Shown here: positions 27,550-33,053 of the stretch, in pieces
How positions within the stretch are numbered: position 1 is the first letter of the stretch
Layout: each line of letters opens with the position of its first letter
Assembly: GCA_022561775.1 (NCBI GenBank)
Contig: JADFQO010000002.1
Coordinates: forward strand, 45,725-109,724
DNA: 64,000 nucleotides
Direction of reading: 5' to 3'
DNA from: Myxococcales bacterium
GTDB taxonomy: Bacteria; Myxococcota_A; UBA9160; SMWR01
Translations under genes and position numbers: made by a program
The notes under the pieces: model-generated
Told to the model about the DNA's origin: nothing
Database searches by the model: none
What the model saw: the letters and a program-made list of their open reading frames with translations, nothing else

Positions 27550-27708
27550 TTAAGCGGTCCTCCTTTGGATCTTCTTCGTGGAAGGCCGACGCTGCAACCG
27601 CTCAGCCCGGCGCGCTTCACGCCTGCTCGGCTCGTTGAGCAGGGCCTTGGCAAACTCCAGACCCACGTCTCGGCGCCAGTATGCGGCCCGTCTAGCGCGG
27701 CGCGTCAC
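27550..27708 (-). CDS. 52-aa arginine-rich protein (below ORF-track cutoff)
   Basis: GTG at 27706-27708 overlaps the TGA of the upstream gene (GTGA). Encodes MTRRARRAAYWRRDVGLEFAKALLNEPSRREARRAERLQRRPSTKKIQRRTA. Third positions are G/C-rich. Confidence 0.35.
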   Translation of the reverse strand: MTRRARRAAYWRRDVGLEFAKALLNEPSRREARRAERLQRRPSTKKIQRRTA

Positions 27709-27974
27709 GTGCACGCCGGAGTATCGGGGGCACCCGAAGTGTCTTTCCGGTTCACGAACTCCATGATCACGGCCGCAAATTTAACGTACCAGTCGGCGGC
27801 CCCTCTGTGGTTCGCTCGGGTCAGTGCAATATCCAACGCCCGGAGCTTCTGCGGGTCGTCTCCGACGAAGCGGTAGAACGTCTCGGCGAAAGCCTTGATG
27901 TCGCCCTTGCCACAGCGCACGGAAAGTGCCGTTGCTCGTTCGATGCAACCGAAGCGAAATTCCGCGCGGTCCAT
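27705..27974 (-). CDS. hypothetical protein, 89 aa
   Basis: Start abuts the stop of the upstream gene, inside the long coupled operon. No motif recognised. Confidence 0.55.
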   Translation of the reverse strand: MDRAEFRFGCIERATALSVRCGKGDIKAFAETFYRFVGDDPQKLRALDIALTRANHRGAADWYVKFAAVIMEFVNRKDTSGAPDTPACT

Positions 27975-28415
27975 CTAGTTGAACAACGCAGAGAAGTCGT
28001 CCTTCAATGTGCGCGCCTGGGCGAGGTCATCTCGAACCTCTTGCTCACGCTTGCCGACCTCGTCCTCCCGCTTCTCTAGTGCCTTCAGCTTTGTCTGGTA
28101 ACCCGCGATCAAGGTGTCTGCTCGACCTTGCGCCTTTTGCTCGGCATCCGCCCGAGCGCCGGCCTCTTGCAAGATCGCGTTGGCCTTCTTCTCGGCGTTA
28201 GACAATGTTCCGGTCGCTTCCTCGAGCAAAGCCACAGCTTCGTTACGGAACCTCTCGATGTCCGCGATCTTGCCCACAACAGCAATCCGCTCGTTGGCCT
28301 CATCTCGGGCTTTGTGGATCGTTGCGAGGGCTTTTTCAATCTCGTCTGAGTTCCGCAGAAGCTTGATCAGGGATTCAATAAACCGGAGACCCGTCGGGTT
28401 CTGAAGTGTGTCCAT
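27975..28415 (-). CDS. coiled-coil protein, 146 aa
   Basis: ATG at 28415 preceded by AAGGAG. Heptad-like charged helices throughout. The track start at 28652 is judged an artefactual extension. Confidence 0.6.
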   Translation of the reverse strand: MDTLQNPTGLRFIESLIKLLRNSDEIEKALATIHKARDEANERIAVVGKIADIERFRNEAVALLEEATGTLSNAEKKANAILQEAGARADAEQKAQGRADTLIAGYQTKLKALEKREDEVGKREQEVRDDLAQARTLKDDFSALFN

Positions 28416-28441
28416 TGTGATTCTCCTTCGTGTTGTGTCGT

Positions 28442-29605
28442 TCAATCGTATGCGATCTTGTAAAGCTGGTTTCGCCGTGCCACCAGTGAGCGGTGCGACT
28501 GGAGGCCAAGGACCGCGACGTCCGTTGTCCACAGTTCGGGGTTCTTTTCGAGCTTCGCAATCTCGGCTTGGGCCTCGGCCCGACTCATCTGGTTCACCGA
28601 CGCGCCCTGGCCTACGACCGGAGCCTCCGCGATTCGGTTCGCCTTGCCCCAACGCGCCAAAGTTTGTCGATCCTTGTCGCTGCGGTCTCTCGGGTCCTCC
28701 AGGTTGCTCATGGCCCGCGTCAGTTCTTGCCCGAGTCCCTTGACGTCGGCGTATTGCTTCAGCTCAGCCTTCGCCGCGGCCTTCGCTTCGGCGGTAACGG
28801 GTTCAGCCTGCGTGGGTGCTTCTTCCGGGTAGGCCCTTTCAAAGAGTCGCTGACGTTTTTCGAGGGCCGATCGACGTCCGGGGGTGTCGCTCATGTCGAA
28901 TATGTGCTTGTTGTAGTTGTCGTCCATTTCAAGCTCGTCAAGTTCTTGCTGCGCGAGTTGTGCCGAGCTTTCAAGCGCCATGTGGCCTCCGAGTTTTGCA
29001 AGCATCTTGATGAGCGTGGGCGAGTCGCCGAACAAGCTCCCGTCCGCAAGCCGGATTTGGGTGAGCCGCTGGACCTCGTCGTGGCCCAAGAGATTCGCGG
29101 CAACGTCTCTTGCGGTTTTGATCTTCGCTTCGTATGAGTCGCGCCATTCGTGTTGAAGCGCCCGGCGCGACTGGGCAGCGCGGGCCGCAGCCGCTTCGTC
29201 CGTCTGCGCGTCCGCTTGTTCCTGGGCGGCCTCTATCATCTGCGGAAGGCGCTCGCTCTGACCCTTCGACCACGAGTTCATCAACTTCGCGACGGTCTCG
29301 GGCGCAACGCCCTCCGCGAGAGCTTCGTGGTACAACCTCAAGGCGCCGTCGTGGTCCCAATGCTCGGCGAGGTTTTCGGGGATCTCCGTGGCGGCCAGGG
29401 CGCTAATCATCTCCGGCGACGGGCCTGGGTCGACCGGCTCGGACTCGAGCGTGAAGGTGTCGGGTGCGCCGGGCTCCACACCGACATCGGAACCCTCGGA
29501 GGCCGGAGCGAACGGCTCAGACTGAGCCTCGGCGCCGCCATGAGTACCAGCGTCGGGCACAGATTCGCCCCCGACCTCCGGGGTCCCGCTGATCGGTTCG
29601 GTCAT
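28442..29605 (-). CDS. acidic 387-aa protein resembling phage head-scaffolding proteins
   Basis: The segment ALQHEWRDSYEAKIKTARDVAANLLGHDEVQRLTQIRLADGSLFGDSPTLIKMLAKLGGHM resembles a pattern I recall from phage scaffold proteins. Long Ala/Glu/Gln helices. Unverified. Confidence 0.6.
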   Translation of the reverse strand: MTEPISGTPEVGGESVPDAGTHGGAEAQSEPFAPASEGSDVGVEPGAPDTFTLESEPVDPGPSPEMISALAATEIPENLAEHWDHDGALRLYHEALAEGVAPETVAKLMNSWSKGQSERLPQMIEAAQEQADAQTDEAAAARAAQSRRALQHEWRDSYEAKIKTARDVAANLLGHDEVQRLTQIRLADGSLFGDSPTLIKMLAKLGGHMALESSAQLAQQELDELEMDDNYNKHIFDMSDTPGRRSALEKRQRLFERAYPEEAPTQAEPVTAEAKAAAKAELKQYADVKGLGQELTRAMSNLEDPRDRSDKDRQTLARWGKANRIAEAPVVGQGASVNQMSRAEAQAEIAKLEKNPELWTTDVAVLGLQSHRSLVARRNQLYKIAYD

Positions 29606-32282: not shown

Positions 32283-32629
32283 GGTGTTGCCCGCTGACGG
32301 CTACGTAGATCCGTATCGGCGTCAAGCTTCTCGAGTTGGCGCGCGAGCCTACGGTGCCGCCGCTCAACCGCCCCCGTGAACGTGCAACCCATGGCCTTGA
32401 GCTGATCGAGAACCGCAGCGCGATCACTGGGCTGGGTGCGCTTCCGGCGCAGCGCGAGAACGAAGTCGGCGAGCACGAGCCCCGCCGTTTCCGCCGTCGA
32501 CCATCCTCTGGCCGCTGCGTATTGTCGAAGATCGTGAGCCATTCGCGCCGGAAGTAGTGCGTGAACGATTTTCCGACGCCCCGTGGTGTGGGGACGACGG
32601 CGGCGCAGCGCGGTCTCGGCCGAGGTCAC
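32279..32629 (-). CDS. ribbon-helix-helix-like small protein (paralog A)
   Basis: KIVHALLPARMAHDLRQYAAARGWSTAETAGLVLADFVLALRRKR fits a beta-alpha-alpha pattern. The GTG start overlaps the upstream stop (GTGA). Confidence 0.5.
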   Translation of the reverse strand: MTSAETALRRRRPHTTGRRKIVHALLPARMAHDLRQYAAARGWSTAETAGLVLADFVLALRRKRTQPSDRAAVLDQLKAMGCTFTGAVERRHRRLARQLEKLDADTDLRSRQRATP

Positions 32630-32799
32630 GGGGAGTCAACCTCGGGGTCGAGCTTTTCGAGCCGGGCGCGCTTGCGGCGCTGCTTGAGAACGAAATCTGC
32701 GAGCACAAGCTTCACCAGCTCTGGGCTAGACCAACCTTTCTCGGCGGCGTAGTCGCGAATAAATTTAGCGGTACGAAGCGGCAAGATCGCATAAGCCAT
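32626..32799 (-). CDS. ribbon-helix-helix-like small protein (paralog B)
   Basis: MAYAILPLRTAKFIRDYAAEKGWSSPELVKLVLADFVLKQRRKR aligns with paralog A. The internal ATG at 32799 is preferred. Confidence 0.5.
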   Translation of the reverse strand: MAYAILPLRTAKFIRDYAAEKGWSSPELVKLVLADFVLKQRRKRARLEKLDPEVDSP

Positions 32800-32831
32800 C
32801 TGGCCGTGAACCGTGGTGCCGCTGCGAGAAC

Positions 32832-33053
32832 TCACGACTCCCCCCGCTGGCGCGTGAGGAAATATTCGAGCACCGTCCTCAGGTGGTAGCGGCACCTTCC
32901 ACCATTTAACCTGACGAACGGAGGGCCGCGACCCTCCAATCTCCAGCGCTCGTAGGTCCGGGGGCTGTAAGCGGTCCGCTCGGCGATGTACTTAGTAGAA
33001 ACGAACCGGTCGAGCGGGTCACCCACGGTCGAAATTTCAGAAAAAATATTCAT
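32832..33053 (-). CDS. AlpA/excisionase-family helix-turn-helix protein
   Basis: FVSTKYIAERTAYSPRTYERWRLEGRGPPFVRLNGGRCRYHLRTVLEYF is the typical AlpA/MerR-type HTH pattern. ATG at 33053. Confidence 0.65.
   Translation of the reverse strand: MNIFSEISTVGDPLDRFVSTKYIAERTAYSPRTYERWRLEGRGPPFVRLNGGRCRYHLRTVLEYFLTRQRGES

Follow-up and report, generated by a model that had tools for sequence, protein, structure and literature searches.

We analysed a window of 64,000 nucleotides (nt) from a Myxococcales bacterium (contig JADFQO010000002.1 of assembly GCA_022561775.1, positions 45,725 to 109,724); coordinates given below are those of the window unless another contig is named. On the minus strand of this window lies a nine-gene operon (27550–33053), which is part of an integrative element of about 16 kb. 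The sixth gene of the operon codes for an acidic protein of 387 amino acids (aa) that is homologous to a family of phage proteins encoded at the position of the scaffolding gene, and the C-terminal module of this family is present in the protein twice. The best explanation for these observations is that the operon acts as the module for replication and hijacking in an integrative satellite which parasitizes a podovirus or hijacks its capsid. We estimate the probability of this interpretation at roughly 0.6.

Homology of the 387-aa protein to phage proteins

In an initial annotation made from the sequence alone the 387-aa protein (28442–29605, minus strand) had been described as acidic and its central segment as similar to phage head-scaffolding proteins. 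The pI of the protein is 4.81, and the similarity could be substantiated with PHROG, HMMER and hhalign. PHROG 3742 matched residues 123–219 with an E-value of 4e-10. The close family of the protein consists of 11 proteins with 56–78% identity, all from metagenomes or metagenome-assembled genomes (MAGs); the protein itself is identical to MCH7643403.1 (locus IH974_01085) from a Myxococcales MAG. An exhaustive HMMER search with the profile of the 387-aa family gave 367 hits. Apart from a few close relatives and fragments, the hits listed were mostly proteins of 260–330 aa whose C-terminal ~130 residues aligned to residues ~125–261 of the query. Ten hits were sampled, and all of them belonged to PHROG 3742 and nine also to PHROG 458.

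When the family was compared with 61 phage proteins by hhalign, residues 70–267 aligned to residues 99–292 of the template (308 residues) with a probability of 99.8% and an E-value of 7.5e-30. This core homologous region (28805–29398, minus strand) corresponds to the C-terminal two-thirds of the phage protein and includes the first copy of the C-terminal module. The N-terminal ~100 residues of the phage family are absent from the 387-aa protein, which has an acidic disordered segment instead. No match to PF05396 was found in a Pfam search of the 387-aa protein.

A structural model was calculated with AlphaFold2 after 60 sequences of the phage family had been added to the alignment (pLDDT 83.6). 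The modelled protein is all-helical with a disordered acidic N-terminus. A first model made with 11 close sequences had a mean pLDDT of only 51 and was therefore excluded from the fold search. Foldseek found nothing significant in the PDB (best E-value 1.6), so that the family has no representative among the solved structures; in BFVD the best matches were uncharacterised phage proteins of about 300 aa, and an annotated T7-like scaffold (phage Petty) appeared only at an E-value of 0.21. Designed PPR proteins were found in a PDB sequence search and were rejected, as these hits were summed weak matches to a repetitive protein with no stretch passing alone. A similarity to Sid, Psu or Cpm proteins, for which the initial annotation had suggested a search, was not recovered, neither by PHROG and PDB sequence searches nor by the Foldseek search of the PDB.

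Duplication of the C-terminal module

The second copy of the module first became visible as an extra segment at the end of the 387-aa gene when open reading frames (ORFs) of phages were compared with the window by tblastn. This copy is situated at the extreme C-terminus (residues 324–386; 28448–28636, minus strand) and aligned to residues 221–283 of the phage family template with a hhalign probability of 96.6% and an E-value of 5.6e-10. When the C-termini of ten members of the family were combined into a profile, it matched the phage family with a probability of 97.5% and an E-value of 5.3e-12. In the main alignment residues ~205–267, which constitute the first copy, also align to this template region. 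As a control, the 146-, 89- and 148-aa proteins of the operon were compared with the same profile and scored below 3% probability.

Since the module is present twice, the layout of the protein can be described as an acidic disordered N-terminus, a scaffold core, the first module copy, a helical linker of ~60 residues and the second copy. Both copies retain the conserved positions of the phage family up to the terminal AYP motif: the phage proteins end with AYP, and many members of the 387-aa family with AYPD, AYPK or AYPS. The replacement of the N-terminus and the duplication of the C-terminal module are alike in all family members. The C-terminal extension showed no similarity to the small ORF that is located between the scaffold and capsid genes of the metagenomic phage contig L015.

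Genomic position of the phage family

In all phage DNA examined, namely MW202510, the Salmonella phage epsilon15 (gp6), the Pelagibacter phage HTVC024P and contig L015, the gene of this family, which is one of epsilon15-, HTVC010P- and T7-like podoviruses, has the portal gene on one side and the major capsid gene on the other. Tail tubular genes come next in epsilon15, HTVC024P and MW202510. The comparison with T7 showed that this is the position of the scaffolding gene 9. In HTVC024P the family member is annotated as 'putative capsid assembly protein', and 17 of the 61 family members matched the Pfam family Phage_T7_Capsid (PF05396, T7 gp9), the best with an E-value of 2.6e-8. The phages with a scaffold of this family have genomes of 34–44 kb. 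The 387-aa gene is placed differently, as its place is after the replicase gene and not, as in the phages, between portal and capsid genes.

The integrative element and its relatives

The operon is contained in an element that spans positions 21495–37445 (15.95 kb). These limits were deduced from two exact 20-nt direct repeats which bracket the integrase end and the far conserved ORF. The left copy of the att core, TTGCTGATCAGAGGTCAGGC, is located at 21495–21514, 129 nt beyond a 93-aa ORF, which is the last conserved ORF. The right copy (37426–37445) is located 168 nt upstream of the integrase start. The two copies are 15,931 nt apart, and we estimate that such a pair of 20-nt repeats is expected by chance in 22 kb with a frequency of ~2e-4. 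The genes on either side of the element code for an M24 peptidase and an outer-membrane protein; no tRNA gene was detected in the 64-kb window.

At the right end a tyrosine integrase of 397 aa is encoded (36065–37258, minus strand; Pfam Phage_integrase with E = 7.4e-22 and Arm-DNA-bind_3 with E = 4.4e-14), which is 46–82% identical to the integrases of related elements. Downstream of it and in the same orientation follows the gene for an 80-aa AlpA-type helix–turn–helix (HTH) regulator or excisionase (34383–34625, minus strand; Pfam HTH_17, E = 3.8e-9). This gene is conserved in the related elements on the metagenomic contigs L001, L011 and L014.

At least five related metagenomic elements keep the integrase, AlpA, the scaffold-like gene, the coiled-coil protein and the 89-aa gene. 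The layout they share consists of the integrase, HTH_17/AlpA, small ORFs, the replicase, the scaffold-like gene, the coiled-coil protein (146–151 aa in most elements) and the homologue of the 89-aa protein (82–104 aa). In some elements the TubC_N protein, either complete or reduced to its C-terminal domain, is encoded between the replicase and the scaffold-like gene. Across at least five independent elements the identity of the 387-aa protein is 59–76%. A more distant relative (P0039, 30% identity) belongs to an element with integrase, HTH_17, Prim-Pol/PriCT_1 and AAA_25. The replicases of these elements are exchanged for one another, with Prim-Pol plus PriCT_1, Prim-Pol plus DUF3987 with a DEAD helicase, AAA_25, D5_N plus DUF5906, and DUF3631 as the types observed, while the scaffold-like module is kept.

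The element on L010 has the same geometry and is bounded by a 16-nt repeat whose copies are 15,381 nt apart. Thus, the sizes bounded by repeats are 15.95 and 15.4 kb, and for the L001/L016 pair sizes of ~14.9 and 12.9 kb were estimated from gene positions. The contigs L001, L002 and L016 form one metagenomic scaffold of ~30 kb with two adjoining elements of the family. The second of these elements lacks an integrase gene at its beginning, and after it comes a convergent one whose product is 75% identical to the integrase of the window. The adjoining elements suggest that arrays are formed at one site.

Virion genes, helper phage and packaging functions

The initial annotation had stated that the operon is not accompanied by virion genes. 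We compared 359 ORF translations from 11 phage loci with the 64-kb window by tblastn and obtained hits only inside the 387-aa gene. Accordingly, no homologue of a capsid, portal, terminase or tail gene was found in the window, and none of these genes occurs in the gene lists of the related elements. The 146-, 89- and 148-aa proteins had no match in 50,697 phage genomes (tblastn).

The searches for a helper prophage and for copies in viromes, which the initial annotation had suggested, gave no support. The tblastn comparison revealed no prophage in the window. A scan of GTDB with a degenerate DNA motif for phage-type scaffolds gave 35 matches, a number close to the chance estimate; eight of them were real and none of these was from Myxococcota, and the scan is therefore uninformative on the helper. 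Two phage contigs with a scaffold of this family are close to the element (61%) in G+C content, L015 and L052, both with 59%. Among 2.9 million viral contigs of IMG/VR there was no close relative, and only distant phage scaffolds were detected. The GTDB representative genomes contained no close relative, and a single distant phage contig was found among the JGI metagenome contigs.

Interpretation and alternatives

The proposal of the initial annotation that the element is a phage satellite is supported by the homology to scaffolds, by the lack of virion genes and by a satellite-like architecture (integrase, AlpA, primase, att repeats and a size of ~16 kb), but neither by a likeness to Sid, Psu or Cpm nor by the helper and virome searches. 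Because no helper phage and no virion-borne copy was found, the satellite lifestyle is one that we infer. The following course of events could be envisaged. When a helper podovirus with a genome of ~35–44 kb and a T=7 capsid infects the cell or is induced, AlpA would activate both the operon and excision, after which the element would be replicated by its own primase–helicase. The 387-aa protein would bind the major capsid protein of the helper by its two C-terminal modules and compete with the scaffold of the helper, probably together with the 146-aa coiled-coil protein and the 89-aa protein, which are always linked to it. Assembly would thereby be redirected and yield smaller shells, of which one with T=4 would accommodate an element of 13–16 kb and not the phage. 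Finally, the terminase of the helper would package the element. The size is compatible with simple arithmetic, as the scaling of the volume from T=7 to T=4, (4/7)^1.5, gives 0.43 of the helper genome or 15–19 kb. Our confidence in the redirection of capsid size in particular is lower than that in satellitism or capsid hijacking.

Several points weigh against a satellite that hijacks a podovirus capsid. No helper phage was identified in the window or in the searches made, and the closest phage scaffolds are only 25–37% identical. IMG/VR, being devoid of close relatives, provides no evidence for encapsidation, and all relatives of the element are metagenomic. A terminase small subunit, Rpp- or Ppi-like proteins, and cos or pac features were not recognised in the Pfam and PHROG searches of the operon proteins. 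For the phage family itself we infer the scaffold role from the gene position, the helical character, the partial link to Pfam and the annotations of the depositors. T7 gp9 as a single sequence scored a non-significant probability of 1–2% against the family profiles, and some database records label the family 'protease'. The binding of the capsid protein by the C-terminal module would follow from an extrapolation from the scaffolds of P22, 80alpha and herpesviruses (PMC12005531, PMC5644958).

We considered three alternatives for the presence of a scaffold-derived protein in such an element. First, the element could be a defence island in which this protein serves as a dominant-negative decoy that poisons the capsid assembly of podoviruses, the island itself being unpackaged and moving rarely or by other means. 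The homology to the scaffold applies equally to this case, and a protein with a truncated N-terminus and a duplicated module would fit a dominant-negative function. It also agrees with this alternative that a packaging gene or site was not recognised, that IMG/VR contains no copy and that the element has cargo typical of islands, such as the DUF3800 protein. However, PADLOC finds no known defence protein, and the narrow size range of 13–16 kb suggests a packaging constraint. An own primase–helicase and control by AlpA are moreover costly and are a hallmark of elements that amplify before they are packaged. We therefore regard a pure defence island as unlikely, also since known satellites combine interference with transfer, so that this alternative overlaps with the satellite interpretation rather than excluding it.

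Second, the element could be integrative and plasmid-like, with the scaffold-derived protein exapted, for example, to organise the replisome or to act in partitioning, with the coiled-coil protein and the TubC_N adaptor as its partners. The 387-aa gene always directly follows the replicase gene or the gene of the small adaptor of the replicase, the acidic tail of the replicase may be a docking site of the TubC_N protein, and the other proteins of the module have no phage homologues. Yet at least five replicase types have been swapped while the scaffold-like gene stays, which argues against a tie to one replication machinery, and the preservation of the conserved phage positions in both modules up to AYP points to the retention of the ancestral binding partner. 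Exaptation for replication or partitioning thus appears even less probable than a defence island.

Third, although the scaffold-like gene is the sole phage-derived morphogenesis gene present, it is very unlikely to be the leftover of a degraded podovirus prophage because its conserved and remodelled architecture is found across elements: at least five independent elements have the same genes in the same order, with 59–76% identity of the 387-aa protein, all members have undergone the same replacement of the N-terminus and duplication of the C-terminal module, the att repeats are intact, the ORFs are intact and overlapping, and remains of portal, capsid, terminase or tail genes are absent.

A satellite or capsid hijacker, which would form a new lineage of the PICI/P4 kind, therefore remains our preferred interpretation. 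A more detailed version of it would be a new family of satellites in Myxococcota that parasitizes epsilon15/T7-like podoviruses, sets a smaller capsid with a double-headed scaffold mimic and uses a conserved noncoding array as a packaging or regulatory signal. We consider this version tentative, with the odds rather against it.

Comparison with known satellites

The closest functional parallel is provided by SaPI1. Its CpmB protein has a C-terminal helix-and-hook that is also found in the scaffold of 80alpha. The two proteins compete for one capsid-protein site, and small capsids are formed for the ~15-kb island (PMC5644958). Likewise, the 387-aa protein has kept the C-terminal module from a family of phage scaffolds. 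In contrast to CpmB, a dimer of 72-residue subunits with ~16–21 residues in common with the scaffold, the homology extends here over ~200 residues, with two copies of the module in a protein of 387 aa. Neither CpmA nor CpmB was matched in sequence searches of PHROG and the PDB. Moreover, the presumed helper is a podovirus and not a siphovirus, and the host is a member of the Myxococcales, whereas SaPI1 is a phage-inducible chromosomal island (PICI) of Gram-positive bacteria.

In the PICIs of Gram-negative bacteria (EcCICFT073, PmCI172) the integrase, AlpA and primase/replicase genes have one orientation, the att sites are specific and the size is 10–16 kb (PMC6092414, PMC10085698). The element has the same order of integrase, AlpA and primase, att sites and a similar size, and it also lacks tail and lysis genes. 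It differs in that no homologues of TerS, Ppi, Rpp, CpmA/B or Ccm were found for the operon proteins with Pfam and PHROG; its one gene related to morphogenesis is of another family. The combination of integrase, AlpA and primase alone corresponds to Type C in the PICI model of SatelliteFinder and is regarded as non-diagnostic, and more than 99.9% of the PICIs in that study were from chromosomes of Proteobacteria or Firmicutes (PMC10085698). With only these three generic PICI markers and no markers of P4 or cfPICIs, the element is outside the defined satellite families. Unlike a cfPICI, it has no capsid, portal, head–tail connector, adaptor or terL genes of its own.

The element resembles P4 in being integrative and in having its own primase–helicase, and T=4 capsids made from a T=7 helper, as in P4, would be formed here according to our interpretation. 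The P4 proteins Sid, which determines capsid size, and Psu, a decoration protein, act from outside the capsid; neither of them derives from the internal scaffold of the helper. Homologues of psu, delta, sid, epsilon and alpha were not detected when the operon proteins were searched with PHROG and Pfam. P4-like elements are largely enterobacterial (PMC10803314, PMC10085698).

Environmental satellites with integrase, AlpA and primase have been described as PICMIs and marine VEIMEs (PMC10803314, PMC9618062). VEIMEs contain no major capsid structural genes and are seemingly packaged as concatemers in native full-sized capsids (PMC9618062); they differ from the element described here, which has a scaffold-derived gene. 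Of the epsilon15/HTVC010P scaffold family (PHROG 3742/458) the element shares the regions homologous to residues 70–267 and 324–386 of the 387-aa protein. The phage proteins of ~290 aa have the N-terminal ~100 residues which the 387-aa protein lacks, and it is only in the latter that the module is doubled.

The characterised satellite families in the literature surveyed are from enterobacteria, Vibrio, Firmicutes and Streptomyces, and a search of a collection of papers for a satellite in Myxococcota yielded no report. If the satellite interpretation is correct, the scaffold-competition principle of SaPI1 would have a second and independent example in the element, with a hijacking protein that is a large and clearly homologous derivative of the internal scaffold of the helper and has the capsid-binding module duplicated. 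The element would then also serve as a natural experiment on how the T-number of a capsid is determined by the geometry of the scaffold. In addition, a homologue of a scaffold-position protein next to a replicase and an integrase would be a signature for finding satellites that marker-based tools have missed.

The genes of the operon

According to the ORF list of the window, all nine ORFs are encoded on the minus strand at the coordinates first given (27550–33053). The initial annotation had described a translationally coupled operon in which most genes overlap or abut, with two short gaps of 26 and 32 nt, and recomputing the junctions led to the same result. The gap of 32 nt is located between the HTH gene and the 57-aa gene. 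It is followed by four overlaps of 4 nt, which are GTGA at the 57-aa/116-aa and 116-aa/745-aa junctions and ATGA at the 745-aa/148-aa and 148-aa/387-aa junctions. Then come the 26-nt gap between the 387-aa and the 146-aa genes, a junction of 0 nt between the 146-aa and the 89-aa genes and an overlap of 10 nt between the 89-aa and the 54-aa genes. Homologues of the HTH, 116-, 148-, 387-, 146-, 89- and 54-aa products are encoded in the same order on metagenomic relatives, each on at least two contigs. This conservation of most ORFs and of their order shows that they are real genes and not chance ORFs.

The first gene (32832–33053, minus strand) codes for a HTH protein of 73 aa which matched Pfam HTH_17 with an E-value of 1.2e-4, under the curated cut-off, and PHROG 66 (excisionase/regulator) with an E-value of 9.5e-6. 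It is followed on the same strand by the gene for the 57-aa protein (32626–32799), which would be 89 aa long if an upstream GTG were used as start, and by the gene for the basic 116-aa protein (32279–32629), which has homologues in L013 and L016. The 57-aa and 116-aa proteins are paralogues with the common motif GWS..E...LVLADFVL..RRKR; the repeat was also detected at the DNA level, and no family was matched. A scan for promoters and terminators gave counts no higher than those in shuffled sequence. The region just upstream of the first gene (33104–33236, minus strand) contains two 33-nt direct repeats 90 nt apart as well as a G+C-rich hairpin of 12 bp, after which comes a T-rich tract; these repeats and the hairpin could represent an operator, an attenuator or an origin.

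The fourth gene (30045–32282, minus strand) encodes the 745-aa replicase. The Prim-Pol and PriCT_1 domains were matched by Pfam with E-values of 1.7e-13 and 2.5e-15, respectively, and a C-terminal primase/helicase-like region and an acidic C-terminal tail follow; in PHROG the protein matched DNA primase/helicase families. A 38-nt direct repeat within the gene (30101–30138 and 31448–31485) encodes the peptide (S/F)(Y/T)TPYTP(P/Y) twice, one copy being situated in the linker after PriCT_1 and the other near the C-terminus.

The protein encoded after the replicase (148 aa; 29602–30048, minus strand) had been described as TubC_N-like. It does possess an N-terminal TubC_N docking domain (Pfam, E = 2.7e-16), which also matched docking domains of known structure in the PDB, those of AerJ, EpoB and TubC. 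Its conserved C-terminal domain (residues 55–144) is 80% identical to a 127-aa protein of L001 which is without TubC_N. In both replicases that have a TubC_N protein next to them the acidic C-terminal tails are alike, with ...EPEDLEEAIV in the window (30045–30090) and ...LEDPEEGIL in L016 (7478–9547). The tails of three replicases without a TubC_N partner have no acidic motif, whereas a fourth replicase without a called TubC_N gene, the DUF3631 protein of L013, has a similar acidic tail. In this very small sample the sequences suggest that TubC_N and the acidic tail of the replicase may form a docking pair like those of NRPS/PKS systems.

Downstream of the 387-aa gene three further genes are located on the same strand. 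The product of the seventh gene (146 aa; 27975–28415) is 51–88% identical to its counterparts in L001, L011, L013 and L016. It had been predicted to be a coiled-coil protein, and matches of the coiled-coil type were indeed found but were weak. With PADLOC no defence system was detected, and the sole hit was a coiled-coil match to JetC. The 89-aa protein (27705–27974) is the constant companion of the 387-aa gene; a homologue search retrieved only eight proteins, every one within the same element family. The last gene (27550–27714) is present as annotated, but its product is 54 aa and not 52 aa long when counted from the GTG start. It is an arginine-rich protein with a pI of 12.

The structured noncoding array

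Downstream of the operon three structured noncoding units of ~115 nt each are located (25641–26077, minus strand) with start-to-start distances of 188 and 128 nt. Four such units are present in L010 (11899–12572) and three in L016 (13742–14172). Over the arrays the units are usually 180–192 nt apart. Each unit contains a hairpin of ~14 bp plus 3 bp, and at three positions G-U is the commonest pair on the strand in the sense of the operon. The DNA of the array is 79–91% identical between the window, L010 and L016, where the scaffold-like proteins are 66–69% identical and the replicases are unrelated.

The array could be a packaging signal of the pac or cos type, a regulatory RNA or an origin. 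As it is independent of the replicase type, a role as origin is argued against. An Rfam search of the array gave no match, and the array is absent from the first element of L001 and from L014. The hairpin motif had one match in IMG/VR, which was rejected since it was on a contig without proteins of the element and at the estimated chance level.

Other features of the element

Between the AlpA-type gene and the operon we found an int-alpA RNA motif (34297–34365, minus strand; Rfam RF02996, 42.3 bits at a gathering score of 35.8), which is also present in the related element on L014 (2023–2091). In both cases the motif is not located between int and alpA; it lies directly upstream of an ORF of 270–347 aa and may be a 5′ leader. 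In the window this is a 347-aa ORF (33259–34302, minus strand) without a match in Pfam, PHROG or PADLOC. The ORFs downstream of the motif in the window and in L014 have no detectable relation to each other.

The plus strand carries several cargo genes. Next to the integrase an outer-membrane beta-barrel protein of 188 aa is encoded (35390–35956; Pfam OMP_b-brl, E = 7.4e-15), and on the other side of the operon the DUF3800 protein of 277 aa (26457–27290; Pfam, E = 3.5e-16). A PEP-CTERM protein of 351 aa (21903–22958) was recognised by a weak Pfam match and a C-terminal VPEP...RR motif. Secreted cargo of the PEP-CTERM type on the opposite strand is thus found in two otherwise distant elements, as L014 also encodes such a protein (7158–7919).

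Three small or element-specific ORFs complete the left part: a 58-aa ORF (25435–25611, plus strand) that is conserved in related elements, an element-specific 274-aa ORF (24528–25352, minus strand) and the above-mentioned 93-aa ORF (21643–21924, minus strand), which is conserved at the att-distal end of related elements. Within 23042–24391 (minus strand) two copies of a 257-nt direct repeat (23042–23298 and 24135–24391, 85% identity) carry paralogues of a 73-aa ORF and bracket the gene for a BamE-like lipoprotein (23574–24083). In related elements the 73-aa gene is single-copy, and the repeat around the BamE-like gene looks like a cargo insertion or duplication. Outside the element, a c-di-GMP-I riboswitch (Rfam RF01051, 41.2 bits) is located in the host chromosome at 48946–49032 on the minus strand.

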